DNA of 64,000 bases, from IMG/VR virus record IMGVR_UViG_3300032030_000038, positions 35,425 through 99,424 of that record. One strand, 5' to 3'. Origin of the DNA: a virus (lineage: Duplodnaviria > Caudoviricetes). Position numbers and translations under genes: made by a program. This document shows positions 4,530-48,287 of this stretch, piece by piece. Every line of letters starts with the position of its first letter. The first letter of the stretch is position 1. A model generated the notes under the pieces. The model did no database searches. It worked only from the letters and a program-made list of their open reading frames with translations, and was not told where the DNA came from.

Positions 4530-4988
4530 CTACTTAATTCGCAACTTAGAAATGTCAACCTGTCGTAATGCGCTTAGCACAATCGACATTAGATTGCAAT
4601 AACAGTCTGCAAACTTTGCAAATTCAGACTGAACTTCTTCTTCGTTGCACAAATTAACCGCACAAGAATCGAACAGCTTGATAATAGGGTTATGAATAAT
4701 GCAATTGGTAATTGCATCTAACATTTCTTCTTTATTAAGAGTATCAGGAATAAGCTTCTTGGACAAAGCCTCTATAACAATAAACTCACCAAGATTTAAT
4801 TCATGGGGTTTCTTTAATACCTCTTCAGTAAAAATCTTCTTCTTACACTTACAATCAGAAGTTTTTTCTTCTGTATTACAATCATCAGAATCAAAAATCA
4901 AATCGAGCAAATCTTCAATAACCTTGATTGCTTCCTGTCCTCTTTTAGTGCTTAAAATTTCTTCTAAATTTATTTCTTTTTTAATCAT
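4530..4988 (-). CDS. Hypothetical protein
   Basis: 152-aa ORF with its own upstream promoter. Confidence 0.7.
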   Translation of the reverse strand: MIKKEINLEEILSTKRGQEAIKVIEDLLDLIFDSDDCNTEEKTSDCKCKKKIFTEEVLKKPHELNLGEFIVIEALSKKLIPDTLNKEEMLDAITNCIIHNPIIKLFDSCAVNLCNEEEVQSEFAKFADCYCNLMSIVLSALRQVDISKLRIK

Positions 4989-5540: not shown

Positions 5541-6230
5541 TTAATTTAAGTTTTTTATAATAAATTTATTATCTTCTATGACAAGATATTCTCTTGGCAT
5601 TGTGTCGCAAAACCACACTTCATTTTGATTTGCCAATGTATTCATCATAGTATGCCCCACAACTTGCTTGAACCCATCTATTTTATCTTTTAACAATGAA
5701 GCAGGTCTTACCCAAATCGGGGAACTATACACTGTATCTCCATATTCTGAAAAAGAATCACCATATGTAAAGTTTAATGCTTTTGGTGATAAATCTTTAT
5801 AATTTATAAATTGTAATTTATTTGGATTATCGGATTCAAACCAATACCTCATCCAAGTTTTTGTAATACCTGCATGTGTAAAAAGAATATCATCTTCTCT
5901 ATGTAGTATTTTAATTGTTTCATTTTCAAGACAATCTTTAACTGCTAAATTAGCCCATCTGAAAGTATCATTACTCCACCCACTATATCTTTCACCGAAG
6001 GATACATAATGCCAGTCATGATTACCGAGTAATAAAATGCATTTGTCTCCTTGTTCCTCTTTAAATTTAAGTATTTCGTAAAAGTTTTCTTTTATCTTTT
6101 TCTTAGAAGTGTTAAATCCATCCAAGTAATCTCCTAAAAAGATAATTTTATCAAACTCATTATTTTCTCTGGCTAAAAGTCTTTTCCAAGAATCATGTCC
6201 ATGTACGTCTCCAATAACAATTATTTTCAT
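5541..6230 (-). CDS. Calcineurin-like metallophosphoesterase
   Basis: GDVHG, GDYLD, GNHD, THAG, GHT motifs. Confidence 0.9.
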   Translation of the reverse strand: MKIIVIGDVHGHDSWKRLLARENNEFDKIIFLGDYLDGFNTSKKKIKENFYEILKFKEEQGDKCILLLGNHDWHYVSFGERYSGWSNDTFRWANLAVKDCLENETIKILHREDDILFTHAGITKTWMRYWFESDNPNKLQFINYKDLSPKALNFTYGDSFSEYGDTVYSSPIWVRPASLLKDKIDGFKQVVGHTMMNTLANQNEVWFCDTMPREYLVIEDNKFIIKNLN

Positions 6231-34316: not shown

Positions 34317-34594
34317 GCTATGTCCCTTCCCTATCCTTTAATAGGGGTTCTTATTAACTTATAATCCCGGGTAGATTACAAGGTTAAATTAATTTACCTT
34401 TTTTTGCTGCCTCTAAATCTTGGAGGTAGTTTTCTCTCTCTTGAAGATTTTTTTCTTCTTCATAAGAAGAAATATCTTCTTTAATCGTCATTGCTATCCC
34501 ACAAAAGAGATAGATAGCTGATGCAATCATAAGAATAAATGCAATAGTTGAAATTACCATTTCTTTATTTTTTTAAATGTTAAACATAAATTTG

Positions 34595-34667
34595 TCGAGT
34601 AGGTGCGACTCGAACGCACGACCACTTGAACCCAAACCAAGTATTCTGCCAACTGAACTACTACTCG
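34595..34667 (-). tRNA. tRNA-Pro(TGG)
   Basis: CGAGTAG/CTACTCG acceptor, GTTC/GAAT D arm, CTTGG-TT TGG GT-TCAAG anticodon arm, GTGCG-TTCGAGT-CGCAC T arm; CCA not encoded. Confidence 0.9.
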
Positions 34668-35739: not shown

Positions 35740-35766
35740 ATTATTTATAATTTTTAAAGATTTTAG

Positions 35767-35851
35767 TACCAGAAGCGGGGCTTGAACCCGCACAGCTATA
35801 ATAGCCAACAGATTTTAAGTCTGTCGTGTCTACCAATTCCACCATTCTGGC
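35767..35851 (-). tRNA. tRNA-Leu(TAA)
   Basis: GCCAGAA/TTCTGGT acceptor, ACAGA-CT TAA AA-TCTGT anticodon arm, long variable arm GGCTA-TTA-TAGCT, GCGGG-TTCAAGC-CCCGC T arm. Confidence 0.92.
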
Positions 35852-35855
35852 ATAA

Positions 35856-35923
35856 TGCAGTGCTTCGGACTTGAACCTGTGCCTCCAAATTATTGGCGTG
35901 CTTCCTATTACACCATCACTGCA
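35856..35923 (-). pseudogene. tRNA-like relic lacking a normal anticodon loop
   Basis: TGCAGTG/CACTGCA stem, GTGT..GCAC D arm, GGTTCAAGTCC T loop; anticodon arm only CCAA-TAAT-TTGG. Confidence 0.55.
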
Positions 35924-35927
35924 TTTG

Positions 35928-36533
35928 TGGTCCCTGAGGGACTTGAACCCCCGACCCGCTGATTCCTGCCACACTATGTTACCATAGCCAAACAATTTCA
36001 ATAATAAGTTGAATTTACTTCAAGTTTACATATACATATGTAGGCTTCCCTAGGTTGCAACAACTTAGCATTTCTTACCTTTTAATAGGTACAACCACGT
36101 CTCGCGACCTTATTATGTATAATTGTTTGTTGTGGTCTGGGCTGTCTCTTTACCATATTGAAGACATTGTTAACTATATCGCAGAACTTAGTCAGCTTTT
36201 TATTGTGGGTTCAACCACTTGACTCTTTCCACTTTCTTCAACTTAGGTATCTCCCGTTCAGTCTCTACACGATTATATACACTTTTCAAAAGTCAATATA
36301 TTTTCGCTCGGTATAGTCCTTATACATTATTGTTTAGTACTGCGAAGGCACCCATATCCTTCTATTAATGGGTTATTTACAGAAACACAAGTTACCATCA
36401 GGCCTACTTACATGTGCTCAAAGCTTGTGTTAAGGATTTTCACCGAATTTAGGAGATTCTACACAGGAATTTCTTGCCTGTGCACACAATTTTACTATGA
36501 GTCAGCCGCTCTAACCATCTGAGCTAAGGGACC
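35928..36533 (-). tRNA. tRNA-Ile2(CAT), exons 36533-36497 and 35964-35928, split by a group I intron
   Basis: Spliced: GGTCCCT TA GCTC AGATGGTTA GAGC G GCTGA CT CAT^AA TCAGC GGGTC GGGGG TTCAAGT CCCTC AGGGACC A. The GGNCCCT acceptor and A73 resemble Ile2 rather than initiator Met. Confidence 0.88.
35965..36496 (-). mobile_element. Group I intron (IC3-like), 532 nt, no internal ORF
   Basis: Exon ends in U, intron ends in G. P1 CATAG/TTGTG with U.G at the splice site; P2 GCACAGG/CCTGTGT; P3 ATCTCCT/GGGAGAT; P AAATTCGGTGAAA; Q ATACCGAGCG; R GTGTAGAGACTG; S AAGAGACAGCCC; P9.0 CCAC/GTGG. Confidence 0.9.
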
Positions 36534-36549
36534 AAAAAAAAAACACACA

Positions 36550-36798: not shown

Positions 36799-36816
36799 AA
36801 AAAAGGGCCGAAGCCC
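36799..36816 (-). terminator. Intrinsic terminator with cUUCGg tetraloop
   Basis: GGGC-TTCG-GCCC-TTTTTT overlapping the TAG stop of the upstream gene. Confidence 0.85.
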
Positions 36817-37124
36817 TAGCAGATTTGTATCAACTCGGAGACTTCGCCCGTCTCCTCATCCACTGTCTCTTTGATAGCAAACGTGTCACCCTTATAACCA
36901 GGGTTAGCGAATGCAAATGTCACACCCTTTTCCCACTGGTCAGTTGGCTTGCCATCCGGACCCAGGACGGGCTGTTTAAATGTTAATGGCCACACGGTTA
37001 TCCCACTGGGTTTTACTCTTGCAGGAGTGGTCTTGATTGCTTTTGCAAGGTCTGGTCTTTCCGAGAGTTTTTTAGATTGAAATTCCTCGAAAACTGCATA
37101 CTTTGAATTAAATTTAACTGCCAT
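36816..37124 (-). CDS. 102-aa hypothetical protein, first gene of the leftward arm
   Basis: MAVKFNSKY...; TACTAACTTAAAA leader; own terminator; GC-richer than flanks. Confidence 0.7.
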   Translation of the reverse strand: MAVKFNSKYAVFEEFQSKKLSERPDLAKAIKTTPARVKPSGITVWPLTFKQPVLGPDGKPTDQWEKGVTFAFANPGYKGDTFAIKETVDEETGEVSELIQIC

Positions 37125-37204
37125 AGTTATTGAAGTTTTTAAGTTAGTAAATATTACGGTGGACCGAACCCAATCAGCCCGACACCCAGGGGGTGCTGGG
37201 GGAC

Positions 37205-37274
37205 TACCCACCGCCCTTTTAACTATAAAAAAAAATTTGAAAATTTTTTATCAAAATAAATACCCACCGCCCTT
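37205..37274. repeat. Direct repeat TACCCACCGCCCTT x2 followed by A/T tracts
   Basis: Identical 14-mers at 37205-37218 and 37261-37274, each followed by TATA-A(n)-TTT. Confidence 0.8.
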
Positions 37275-44975: not shown

Positions 44976-47900
44976 ATGATAGAAACAAATATATGCCAGT
45001 CTGAAATAACTGACGAATTGCTTAACAGTATGTCTGGAGACGAACGTGACGCCTTTATGGAATATATCACGTCAATTCCTTTTATACATAATCTTATCTC
45101 AAAGGATAGGAAGTATGCCAGGGATTTGCCGAAGAATGAAGACGGGCGTATAGAGGTTGATTTGTGTAATCCGCATATCCTTGAAAACATGGATTACTTC
45201 AGACCAGCCGCTCTTCATTTCAAAAAGTACGGGTGCTATACCAATTTAAGACCAAACAGCAATCCGAACAGTGAATATGGTGTGTGGGCCAGAACCGAGG
45301 TTGAACGTATCTGGTATGGCATGACCAGACCTGAGGATGGTGAGTGGATTCCCGGCACATTGTATTTTTATTGGAATTATTGTCCCATTTTGCAGTCCAA
45401 AATTAAAAAAGGCTCTCGAAAGGCTGAACGTATTATTGACTTTCCAGAGCCTTGGGATTCTACGTATTTATGGCATCATTATGTACATCAGGCGATACAT
45501 GGCGGTAAATATAACGACTACCTTGGTGGTCAACACTGGGGAATCATAGCACGCAGAGGAGTAGGAAAAGCTCATCCCTATTCTGAATATATTTATACTC
45601 CAAAAGGGCTTAGAAAATGGGGTGAGTTGCAAGTCGGTGATGAAGTTTTTGGAGATGATGGTGTTCCTACAAAAATAATAGATATACCATTTAATGATAT
45701 AACAGATATTTATAAAGTATCATTGAGAGACGGTAGATCTGTATTATGCTCTGGAGAGCATTTATGGAATGTGGAGATACATCATCAAAAAGGTATTAAA
45801 ACACTTTCTACAAGACAACTTATAGAGATTTATAAAAAGGAACGTAAAAAATCAGAGCGAAATCCTGATGGGATTGAGTATGTGTGCAGTATTCACAAAG
45901 GTGGTTGTGTTGAATTTGCAAAACAGCCTACATTAGTTGATCCATATACATTTGGATTGTTATCCGGTGATGGGACTTTTAGAAATGCTCCGTTTTATCT
46001 TACAATGGAGGACAGTGATTTTGATAGTATAAGGAATAATATTCCGTATAGTTGTTATCATCAAAAAACTGCAAAATTCAATCACAGAATTAAAATACCG
46101 AATTTAAAAAACATACTTATAAATTACGGATTGTATGGTAAAAAGTCAGAAGATAAATTCATTCCTGATGAGTATAAATACAATTCAAAAGAAGTAAGAT
46201 TGGATATTTTAAATGGGTTGTTTGATTCAGATGGGTATGTATTAAAAAACCACAGCGCATATTATATCAGCACAGCTTCGCCGAGACTTGCGGATGATAT
46301 AGTTATGATTAGTAGGAGTCTTGGCTTCAATGCGGCAGTATCTGTAAAAAATACAAAGTATTTCAGTAATAAAGAAAATAAATATATTCAATGCCTACCA
46401 GCTTATATTGTAACTATTTATGCAGATTGTAAACTAGGATATCTTAGAAGAAAAACAAGCAGTTCTTATAAAGGAGGATACAGTAAAAGCAGACTTGAAA
46501 AAACAAGAATAATTGATATAAAATACGTTGGAAAACAAATGGCAAAGTGTATTACGGTCAATAATGATTCGGGTTGTTATTTGATTAATGACTTTGTTGT
46601 TACCCACAACTCCCTCAATGTAGCGTCAATGCTGGCCCGTCTGTTTATTCTCGGTGATAACAGGGATGTCAGGGAGTCTGTAAAAGGCACTGTAATAGCA
46701 TCTGACAAGAACTTCCTTATAAAGGATGGTACTCTGAATAAATTTGTTGATTTTATAGATCATTGTGCAGAACATACCCAGTGGCCTACAAGACGTATCA
46801 AGTCCACTCTTGACGAGATGCATTGGATCATGGGTTATAGGGACTCCGAAAATGATCAGATTATCAGGGGCACGAAGAATGAAATCACTGGTATTTCTGT
46901 TAAAGACAACCCAGGTCGTGTTCGTGGTAAACGTGCATTGTTAACTATATTTGAGGAGTTTGGTATGTTTCCAAGATTCCTTGAAACATATAATACATCT
47001 TTGTATAATGCTGCTGAGGGTGATTATGCTTTCGGTAGTATCGGCGTTATCGGTACTGGTGGTGAGAAAAGCAATAATTTCTCTGGTGCTTTGGAGATGA
47101 TTTACAATCCAAAGGGTTACAATATGTATCCTCTTCCCAATGTGTTTGATAAACAATCACAGGGAAGATCGACATCGTTGATGTTCTTAGGTGCATATAT
47201 GAATCGTAAAGGATATTACGACTCTTCTGGTAACAGTGACATTATAGGTGCTTTGGTAGAAGTGATCAAAGAGCGTGAATATATTAAACAAAATTCATCC
47301 GATCCTACCACGGTCACCCAGAAGAAGGCTGAGATGCCTATTACAATACAAGAGTGTATTATGCAGACATCCAGTAATATATATCCTGTATCTGATATAA
47401 ATGAAAGAATCAATGAGATTAATCTCGATCCTACCATAATGAATGGAGTAAAGGCTGGTAAATTCGGTATGGTTGGTGGCGAGGTTATTTTCGAGCTTAC
47501 AAGTGATGAGCCAATTCACAAGTTTCCGCATAAAGACAATAAGATAACAGGTGCTGTTGAGATGTTTATGGAGCCCGAAAAAGATTCCAATGGCAAAATA
47601 TTACAAGACAGGTATATAGCCGGGGCTGACGTTTACGACAATGATGTCGCAGATTCTTTGTCTTTAGGCAGTATATTTGTACTCGATACATTCACTGACC
47701 AGATAGTGTGTGAGTACACAGGAAGACCCATGTTTGCGGATGATTTCTACGAAATTTGCAGAAGAATGTGTATGTATTACAACTGCAAATTGAATTATGA
47801 GCAAAATAAGAAGGGTTTGTTTACATATTTTTCAAGAATGAACTCGACTTATTTACTTACTGACAAGTTTGAGTGGCTATCTGACAGGGATACTTACAAA

Positions 47901-48287
47901 GGAGCTGTCTACGGTAACGTTTCAAAGGGTACGACTTCTACTGTGCCTATAAAGAATTATGGTAGAAAGTTAATAAGGGACTGGCTGCTTAAACCTTGTG
48001 TCAAAATTGAAGTCCAGAACGGCGAAGAAATCGAGATTACTTACCCTAACTTAGGGAATATCAGGAACATAGCGCTTCTTAAAGAGTTATCTATGTACAA
48101 TCTTGATGGTAACTTTGATAGACATGATGCCTTGGTTATGCTCATGATTTACAGAGAAGACAGATTGCGTTTATTTGGAGGCAATATGCGTTCGAATAAT
48201 AATACGCATGATAAAATACTTGACGACAAGTTCTTTTCTTTATATGATGAAAAGGCCTCAAAATACGTCAAGGATTATATGAATTAA
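44976..48287 (+). CDS. terL: Terminase large subunit with intein
   Basis: Walker A ARRGVGK|S, RGKR, FEEFG Walker B, GTGG, GADVYD nuclease motif, GNFDR; 756 aa once the intein is removed. Confidence 0.92.
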   Translation: MIETNICQSEITDELLNSMSGDERDAFMEYITSIPFIHNLISKDRKYARDLPKNEDGRIEVDLCNPHILENMDYFRPAALHFKKYGCYTNLRPNSNPNSEYGVWARTEVERIWYGMTRPEDGEWIPGTLYFYWNYCPILQSKIKKGSRKAERIIDFPEPWDSTYLWHHYVHQAIHGGKYNDYLGGQHWGIIARRGVGKAHPYSEYIYTPKGLRKWGELQVGDEVFGDDGVPTKIIDIPFNDITDIYKVSLRDGRSVLCSGEHLWNVEIHHQKGIKTLSTRQLIEIYKKERKKSERNPDGIEYVCSIHKGGCVEFAKQPTLVDPYTFGLLSGDGTFRNAPFYLTMEDSDFDSIRNNIPYSCYHQKTAKFNHRIKIPNLKNILINYGLYGKKSEDKFIPDEYKYNSKEVRLDILNGLFDSDGYVLKNHSAYYISTASPRLADDIVMISRSLGFNAAVSVKNTKYFSNKENKYIQCLPAYIVTIYADCKLGYLRRKTSSSYKGGYSKSRLEKTRIIDIKYVGKQMAKCITVNNDSGCYLINDFVVTHNSLNVASMLARLFILGDNRDVRESVKGTVIASDKNFLIKDGTLNKFVDFIDHCAEHTQWPTRRIKSTLDEMHWIMGYRDSENDQIIRGTKNEITGISVKDNPGRVRGKRALLTIFEEFGMFPRFLETYNTSLYNAAEGDYAFGSIGVIGTGGEKSNNFSGALEMIYNPKGYNMYPLPNVFDKQSQGRSTSLMFLGAYMNRKGYYDSSGNSDIIGALVEVIKEREYIKQNSSDPTTVTQKKAEMPITIQECIMQTSSNIYPVSDINERINEINLDPTIMNGVKAGKFGMVGGEVIFELTSDEPIHKFPHKDNKITGAVEMFMEPEKDSNGKILQDRYIAGADVYDNDVADSLSLGSIFVLDTFTDQIVCEYTGRPMFADDFYEICRRMCMYYNCKLNYEQNKKGLFTYFSRMNSTYLLTDKFEWLSDRDTYKGAVYGNVSKGTTSTVPIKNYGRKLIRDWLLKPCVKIEVQNGEEIEITYPNLGNIRNIALLKELSMYNLDGNFDRHDALVMLMIYREDRLRLFGGNMRSNNNTHDKILDDKFFSLYDEKASKYVKDYMN
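45570..46610 (+). mobile_element. Class 3 intein (347 aa) with LAGLIDADG endonuclease
   Basis: Begins with Ala (GK|AHPY), ends VVTHN|S; EHLW, KCITV and THN give the WCT triplet; FGLLSGDG and LNGLFDSDG LAGLIDADG motifs. Confidence 0.9.

Follow-up and report, generated by a model that had tools for sequence, protein, structure and literature searches.

That bacterial tRNA genes can carry group I introns is textbook knowledge. A total of 21 bacterial tRNA intron settings have been described, including the Ile2.5Ug class (Williams 2020). For phages, all introns known by 2014 were located in protein-coding genes despite the many phage tRNA genes (Hausner et al. 2014, PMC3984707), in agreement with a preliminary description of the present locus, which stated that phage group I introns are usually found in protein genes. 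Dense introns have been reported in the protein genes of crAss-like phages (Yutin et al. 2021, PMC7886860), and the tRNA introns of Lak megaphages, none of which had been reported earlier, were left unclassified as "enigmatic" (Devoto et al. 2019, PMC6784885). No published description of group I introns in phage tRNAs was found in the literature, the coverage of which was incomplete. In this work, a tRNA-Ile2(CAU) gene was analyzed in a 64,000-nt stretch of DNA (hereafter the window) from the IMG/VR virus record IMGVR_UViG_3300032030_000038. The results indicated that this is probably a functional gene of a crAss-like rumen phage of about 99 kb, which is split between U36 and A37 by a presumably self-splicing, IC3-derived group I intron without open reading frame (ORF), most likely a selfish element. 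The core reading of the preliminary description, in which an Azoarcus-like group I intron interrupts a phage tRNA-Ile2(CAU) at 36/37, was supported by the borders, the helices and the guide.

The window intron shared with the Azoarcus-type tRNA-Ile2 intron the gene type (tRNA-Ile2, CAU), the site after U36, the CAU/GUG pairing in P1 with its U.G pair, and the terminal G before AAUC. The J3/4-P4 (AAAUUCGGYG) and J6/7-P7-P3' (GUGUAGAGACU..ACGG....ACCUAAG) segments were also nearly identical. The previously claimed match of the 36/37 site and the CAU/GUG guide to the Azoarcus tRNA-Ile IC3 intron was thus borne out by site, P1 and core motifs. Differently, the short relatives of Azoarcus type are 198-210 nt in length, whereas the window intron has 532 nt with additional domains on P5, P6 and P8 and a three-way P9, falls below the Rfam cutoff, and has replaced the A-U beside the G-binding pair by A.C. 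It resides in a phage and not in a betaproteobacterial chromosome, and its lineage also occurs in Arg, Leu and Thr tRNAs. The Ile2.5Ug class has the same 36/37 insertion in tRNA-Ile2(CAU), but is compact (about 200-250 nt), lacks large peripheral domains and belongs to bacterial chromosomes. The known ORF-less IC3 intron of tRNA-Leu(UAA) is of the same type, and its site (after U34, CUU/GAG guide) was used by four relatives of the window intron (L006, L012, L023 and L116; L numbers denote viral loci and contigs). In contrast, the window copy is inserted at 36/37 of tRNA-Ile2, the tRNA-Leu(UAA) of the window is uninterrupted, and the introns of the phage family have roughly double the length. 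The introns of phage protein genes (T4 td/nrdB, Twort, and the major capsid protein (MCP) and PolB genes of crAss-like phages) belong to the same ribozyme class and the same kind of host genome, but usually carry homing endonucleases, whereas the window intron is ORF-less and lies in a tRNA. The Lak introns, which can be likened by description only, are likewise found in tRNA genes of gut phages with Bacteroidota hosts, and one was predicted with a tRNA-like sequence, as in L019; they are unclassified, whereas a group I core was demonstrable in the window intron.

The coordinates and the two 37-nt exons given by the preliminary description proved exact on the minus strand. The joined exons (74 nt) folded into a canonical cloverleaf with anticodon CAT, a 7-bp acceptor stem and normal D and T arms; the CCA end was not encoded in the 3' exon. 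U36 (36497) was the -1 nucleotide of the intron, which started with AGTAAAATTGTG and ended with GTGGCAGG. Its tail ran as ...GUGGCAGG up to 35965, and the conserved 3' block was G-terminated in nearly all family members. ARAGORN with introns allowed, a check proposed beforehand, called tRNA(cat) i(38,532) in both the window and the whole genome. The expectation that standard tRNA finders can miss the gene also held, as default ARAGORN and the Rfam tRNA model both missed it and reported nearby only tRNA-Pro(UGG) and tRNA-Leu(UAA). An archaeal/eukaryal-type intron at 37/38, which the A repeat at both borders would allow, was ruled out by the full group I core and by the location in a phage of bacteria. 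A related ambiguity was observed in the family hosts L004 and L019, where ARAGORN called suppressor tRNAs (TCA and TTA anticodons) that became Arg(UCU) and Leu(UAA) by the group I border rules. False suppressor tRNA calls can arise in this way through intron-border ambiguity.

The covariance search with a group I model, also proposed in the preliminary description, gave an end-to-end match to RF00028 (model positions 1-253) at 36506-36137 in a 621-nt scan, with a sub-cutoff score of 35.6 bits and E = 2e-7. The alignment put P1 to P8 at the places predicted before. The Rfam cutoff was passed by none of ten other long-family loci; at this cutoff only short relatives were found (L010 twice, L014 and L016), short relatives having scores of 53-75 bits, and the loss of score in the long-family introns was caused by their long insertions. 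The two short Azoarcus-type introns above the cutoff in L010, a tRNA-rich viral contig, were located at 4552-4748 and 5921-6130, both on the minus strand. No sense-strand ORF of at least 50 amino acids was found wholly within the window intron, none of the three ORFs overlapping it had a Pfam match, and no maturase-like ORF was detected in or beside it. A group II intron (too short, no ORF or Pfam match) and an endonuclease-bearing intron (no ORF or Pfam match) were rejected. Judged from its sequence, the insert is a genuine group I intron and not a chance similarity, because RF00028 was matched over its full length and the helices covaried across 14 homologues.

For the structural test, the P1-P9 model was applied to a 14-sequence alignment of the family (A1), with partners slid by 1-3 columns and 500 shuffles as controls. 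In the model 93.5% of cells were paired, compared with 35-42% with slid partners, and 23 compensatory pairs were counted in P2, P5, P6a, P8a, P9a and P9b. None of the 500 shuffles reached the observed pairing and covariation values. P3 was invariant, P4 varied on one side, and P4 and P7 barely varied, so that these three helices were uninformative in the covariation test. P1 was read by hand since the exons differ between members. In every member with both parts readable (about 20 loci), the guide triplet fitted the exon. The guide GUG was found with the exon end CAU in the window, L002 and L119, and GGA with UCU in L001, L029 and L033; GAG was found with CUU, as among members that interrupt a Leu-UAA or Arg-UCU tRNA behind U34. 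This one-to-one match of guide and exon was the strongest sign of what appear to be working, retargeted ribozymes. In three tRNA-Thr(CGU) members (L008, L121 and L124), C instead of U was present at -1 (GACUC/AUG..., guide GAG), giving a C-G pair at the splice site. This resembles the "Leu.3Cg" oddity (Williams 2020).

The pairings of P1, P2, P3, P4 and P7 and the terminal G listed in the preliminary description were all present (Table 1). P3 was formed by AUCUCC/GGAGAU and P4 by UUCGGUG/UACCGAG. P5 enclosed a 108-nt peripheral extension (36430-36323) which was found in the window copy alone. P6a had four compensatory pairs in the family, and in the UUGAAG/CUUCAA part of P8 a compensatory G-C replaced the A-U of the family. 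In P9 (ACCAC/GUGGC, 36136-36132 with 35972-35968), A.C was present where 10 of the 14 aligned members have A-U; its closing C was shared by 3 of the 14 (the window, L023 and L029). All eight pairs of P9a (CAAACAAU/AUUGUUUG, 36129-36122 with 35996-35989), which bears a 125-nt extension, covaried, and P9b was a GNRA hairpin, CUAUG-GUAA-CAUAG (35987-35974). The extensions on P5, P6, P8 and P9 were 108, 23, 72 and 125 nt in length, and the peripheral extensions had no sequence relationship between family members.

A splicing mechanism was inferred from this anatomy. The guide GUG would pair with C34-A35-U36 to form P1 with its U.G wobble, and a free guanosine bound in P7 would attack after U36. 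The terminal G (35965) would then occupy the same pocket, the exons would be ligated, and the anticodon loop would be restored; the excised intron may circularise. After lysidine modification by the host, the spliced tRNA would read AUA. The selfish lineage may have colonised many tRNA anticodon loops by changes of the guide triplet, and the large size of the intron would be due to non-coding extensions on P5, P6, P8 and P9 and not to a homing endonuclease. For a gating of tRNA maturation by the ribozyme, which had been suggested earlier, there was no indication beyond the trivial need to splice.

The phage record had 99,424 bp with an estimated completeness of 98% and encoded a PolA-type DNA polymerase, ribonucleotide reductase, large terminase, portal and MCP. 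The MCP was 55-59% identical to those of crAss-like phages, e.g. cr111_1, cr106_1 and the Bacteroides PhiCrAssBcn phages. The host of the intron is a crAss-like gut/rumen phage, and the public runs with the matching stretch were sheep and goat gut metagenomes. The GC content was 34.5%, and only three tRNA genes were recognisable in the genome (Pro-UGG, Leu-UAA and the split tRNA-Ile2).

In two sheep-gut RNA-library runs, a contig joined 36496/7 to 35963/4, skipping exactly 532 nt. One RNA contig of 676 nt was identical over 109 nt, 71 of which belong to the phage-specific leader that precedes the tRNA. In the RNA run, contigs matching the intron exactly had a mean depth of about 1130 and the flanks one of 45-90; the corresponding values in the DNA run were 23 and 17.5; contig depth is a poor measure, and the intron RNA depth fits accumulation of excised intron. 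The bin depths over conserved blocks (up to 100,000) pool all family members in the sample, and neither these depths nor the uncovered parts of the stretch were used as an expression measure. One contig of the RNA run crossed the 5' splice site unspliced, which could be precursor or DNA. Several contigs of the RNA run proceeded backwards from the 3' end of the intron to its 5' part with inserted letters (joints 36461/36479/36489 to 35967/35969). Reverse-complemented, they showed ...GUGGUAAG, the 3' end of Leu-type relatives, directly joined to the 5' region of family introns, and the joints comprised full-length or 5'-truncated introns. One of them contained an L116-like intron that lacked the initial 11 nt and was cut immediately behind CUU, the triplet bound by its guide at the 5' splice site. 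Joints of the terminal G to the 5' region after CUU are the classic signature of group I circularisation and were suggestive of this process in the relatives. These results suggested catalytic activity of members of the family in the rumen, a statement that does not concern the window's own copy.

Relatives were sought with a degenerate 27-nt J6/7-P7-P3' pattern, which gave 35 viral loci, and with a P8'-P7'-P9 pattern, which gave 10 more. About 25 viral loci had long blocks in common with the window intron. They were ORF-less IC3 introns of 430-600 nt, nearly all splitting a tRNA anticodon loop, and were hosted by Ile2, Arg, Leu and Thr tRNAs, either after 36 (Ile2, Arg) or after 34 (Leu, Arg, Thr). 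The 27-nt J6/7-P7-P3'-J3/8 motif was common to the window and the Azoarcus-type introns of Betaproteobacteria. The 56 prokaryote hits from 185,579 bacterial and archaeal species genomes were nearly all of the short Azoarcus-type variant, mostly in Betaproteobacteria. The family-specific core (GTAGAGACTGAACGGGAGATACCTAAG) was present in 19 viral loci and in none of these 56 hits, in an exact-pattern scan that misses diverged copies; no sign was seen that the lineage enters host chromosomes, and the movement of tRNA introns between hosts by the phage, proposed in the preliminary description, found no support here. The window region had no blastn match ("distant" mode) in 50,697 GenBank phage records; the family is therefore absent from the deposited phage genomes at the blastn sensitivity used. 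The long-intron lineage was seen only in viral contigs, hidden from standard annotation. By motif search, no second family copy was found in the phage genome. In two members, L007 (11562-12037, minus strand) and L018 (4347-4791, minus strand), the intron flanks contained no recognisable tRNA, and these introns may interrupt protein genes or RNA genes of another kind; the L007 intron had an altered P7' (CAGUAC). The tmRNA genes were also detected with Rfam on two family-bearing viral contigs, L012 (6555-6905, minus strand, 70.3 bits) and L019 (8967-9376, minus strand, 60.6 bits).

Both intron-plus and intron-minus alleles were found in other phages, as a survey proposed beforehand had sought. 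Family introns occupied the same site in other tRNA(CAU) genes of L119 (93.7-kb contig) and L002 (335-kb contig), both with the canonical U in P7, and near-identical intronless genes were present in L045, L048 and L041. The gene of L045 (110-kb contig) was identical to the spliced product at 72 of 74 positions, with both differences in the D loop. The flanking genes were dissimilar between these phages, the tRNA and intron being shared and the neighbourhood not. A 921-amino-acid neighbour protein gave only short domain matches to L119, L045, L116 and L012 and was uninformative on synteny.

Several observations weigh against a functional, self-splicing tRNA-Ile2 gene. The RF00028 score lay below the 50-bit gathering score, and the match was lost in larger scans (the window at gathering score, a 5-kb E-value scan and the whole 99-kb genome). 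The RNA evidence consisted of contigs only, with RNA runs from one sample and study, and the same exon joint, with 19 letters on the shorter side, occurred in a run guessed to be DNA. The joint in the DNA run fits the intronless genes of other phages; given this joint and these near-identical genes, splicing is not proven by the junction seen in RNA. The probable Ile2 identity was based on similarity and annotation rather than on a dedicated isotype model. The A.C mismatch in P7 (GAGACUG/CAGCCC), already pointed out in the preliminary description, was confirmed, with A36262 facing C36141. This pair was A-U in 12 of the 14 aligned family members, and U stood at the equivalent of C36141 in all 66 assessable shorter relatives (53/53 bacterial and 13/13 short viral); the P7' C was found only in the window, L001 (tRNA-Arg) and L120 (tRNA-Leu). 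By position, A36262/C36141 corresponds to A265-U310 of Tetrahymena, one layer of the four-layer base-triple stack forming the guanosine pocket, where G264-C311 lies beside the bulged A and is stacked on A265-U310 (PMC10020454). The bulged A and the G-C pair of the G-binding site were present in the window intron. By analogy, A.C in the G-binding stack could impair catalysis, and it is the main reason for doubting full activity. It might be supposed that the intron is splicing-dead or crippled and the gene a pseudogene, the P7 mismatch and further weakening, e.g. the A.C at the end of P9, stopping catalysis so that the phage relies on the tRNA-Ile2 of its host. The rarity of the P7' C, also within the long family, the place of the affected pair in the G-binding sandwich and the Rfam score under cutoff speak for this explanation, which we nevertheless regard as quite unlikely. 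The exons, 72/74 identical to an intronless allele, would form a perfect cloverleaf. The other core helices were all kept, and the remainder of the window copy was conserved with compensatory changes of its own in P2 and P8, which weighs against inactivity. The recurrence of the P7' C in three tRNA contexts with intact exons weighs against it as well, and so does the second A.C at the close of P9, the C of which is present in 3 of the 14 members. In addition, exact-match RNA contigs over C36141 were abundant, and the exon-joined RNA contig contained the phage leader.

The identity of the tRNA, the autonomy of splicing and the benefit of the intron have likewise to be weighed. The tRNA-Ile2 reads AUA after lysidine modification by the host TilS. 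ARAGORN gave the label "Met", which derives from the CAT anticodon alone and is what would favour an elongator tRNA-Met; this identity is very unlikely here. The best matches of the L045 allele in 5,426 complete Escherichia coli genomes were genes annotated as tRNA-Ile with the anticodon loop CTCATAA (81-83% identity over the full length of 75 nt). L045 has two more CAU tRNAs, one initiator-like (CGCGGG acceptor stem) and one elongator-like. The spliced tRNA has G1-C72 in an elongator-type acceptor stem, which also contains C4-G69 and C5-G68, presumably TilS determinants. Moreover, AUA makes up 39% of the Ile codons of the phage (29 per 1000 codons, more than ATG), and in insertion site and guide the intron agrees with the known Ile2.5Ug class. 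The tRNA was therefore read as a putative tRNA-Ile2(CAU), which would require host TilS for AUA reading. Many long group I introns require cofactors in vivo, and with the large AT-rich periphery and the weakened P7 this might point to splicing that depends on a helper protein (a chaperone or maturase of host or phage) and is not fully autocatalytic. Such a requirement is unlikely, as neither the intron nor its surroundings contain a maturase-like ORF and close core relatives of Azoarcus type are robust self-splicers (PMC13168695, PMC4201826). The intron might also be kept for the benefit of the phage: by timing the AUA supply, by concealing the gene or its pre-tRNA from tRNA-targeting endonucleases or anticodon nucleases of the host, or as a stable, possibly circular, non-coding RNA. 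This would accord with the restriction of the family to viral contigs, its repeated occurrence in tRNA genes of large phages, a conserved peripheral architecture that is large for an ORF-less intron, intron RNA seemingly far above flanking RNA, and the existence of circle junctions. It is nonetheless quite improbable, for intron-minus alleles of the same tRNA exist, the extension sequences are not conserved between members, as for a neutral periphery, and spread with guide retargeting is the behaviour of a selfish element; no defence or timing signal was found near the intron.

Table 1. Positions of the split tRNA gene, its intron and neighbouring features in the window
Feature	Position	Strand	Remarks
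5' exon of tRNA-Ile2(CAU), 37 nt	36533-36497	-	Acceptor 5' strand, D arm, anticodon stem 5' strand, C32-U36
ORF-less group I intron, IC3 (Azoarcus-like), 532 nt	36496-35965	-	Terminal G (omegaG) at 35965
3' exon of tRNA-Ile2, 37 nt	35964-35928	-	A37, A38, anticodon stem 3' strand, variable loop, T arm, acceptor 3' strand, discriminator A
P1	36485-36499	-	C34-A35-U36 and intron A1-G2 (CAU/AG) with guide UUGUG; U36.G wobble at splice site
P2 hairpin	36462-36482	-	CACAGG/CCUGUG; compensatory changes at 4/6 pairs in family
P3 5' strand, J3/4, P4 5' strand	36441-36457	-	P3 5' strand 36457-36452; J3/4 UAAA; P4 5' strand UUCGGUG 36447-36441
P3' and P4' partners	36254-36249 (P3'); 36313-36307 (P4')	-	
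P5	36317-36436	-	UCCUUA/UAAGGA (36436-36431 with 36322-36317)
P6/P6a	36270-36306	-	CGA..AU and NNNN with NNNN and AU..UCG; tandem A.A internal loop
P7 5' strand	36259-36265	-	G-(A bulge)-GACUG
P7 3' strand	36139-36144	-	CAGCCC
P8	36152-36248	-	ACC/GGU and UUGAAG/CUUCAA; encloses 72-nt extension (36235-36164)
P9 three-way junction	35968-36136	-	
tRNA-like element, degenerate	35856-35922	-	Outside intron, 5 nt downstream of exon 2
tRNA-Leu(UAA)	35766-35851	-	Uninterrupted neighbour
tRNA-Pro(UGG)	34594-34667		
Terminator-like hairpin	36804-36817	-	At end of upstream gene (36816-37211, -)

Between the terminator-like hairpin and the tRNA there was a non-coding leader of about 270 nt, and a run of ten T was observed immediately 5' of the tRNA (36534-36545, minus strand); a promoter scan gave chance level only. 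The degenerate tRNA-like element downstream scored 24.9 bits on the Rfam tRNA model, below the cutoff. Its acceptor stem and D arm were good, a loop of 4 nt stood at the place of the anticodon loop, and the T stem was broken. A variant with five changes (35852-35926 contig) was present in another genomic context in rumen DNA and RNA runs. The D and T arms of this element were closely matched by a 75-nt cloverleaf-like module in the P5 extension of the L019 intron (L019:11399-11473, minus strand). L019 thus contained a tRNA-like unit within an intron within a tRNA, and the same arrangement was found in sheep-run RNA contigs. Elsewhere in the window, the large terminase ORF (44976-48287, plus strand) encoded 1103 amino acids, of which residues 569-1081 matched one TerL family. 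The matches of residues 187-555 (approximately) were to different TerL families as well as to families of primases and DnaC-like loaders, which could reflect a fusion, an insertion or an intein-like segment.

The present locus and its relatives showed that classic ribozyme introns do occur in phage tRNAs. Being invisible to default tRNA finders and at the Rfam cutoff, such introns cause phage tRNA inventories to be undercounted; this concerns decoders of AUA and perhaps, among the relatives, tRNAs that read stop codons. A single lineage that has spread over at least five tRNA sites, its guide changing to match, provides a natural data set for group I intron retargeting, the recurrent A.C next to the guanosine pocket is a natural test of the strictness of that site, and with the rumen RNA data there is an unusual opportunity to observe in nature how the ribozyme of an uncultured phage splices and circularises. 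More tentatively, and with somewhat less than an even chance in our estimation, the family could be an actively mobile ribozyme lineage confined to gut/rumen phages, moving by reverse splicing between anticodon loops with retargeting of the 3-nt guide, accumulating as circular RNA in vivo, and tolerating A.C as a functional alternative within the G-binding stack. If this were true, phage tRNA genes would be a main reservoir of tRNA-type group I introns, and not an exception.

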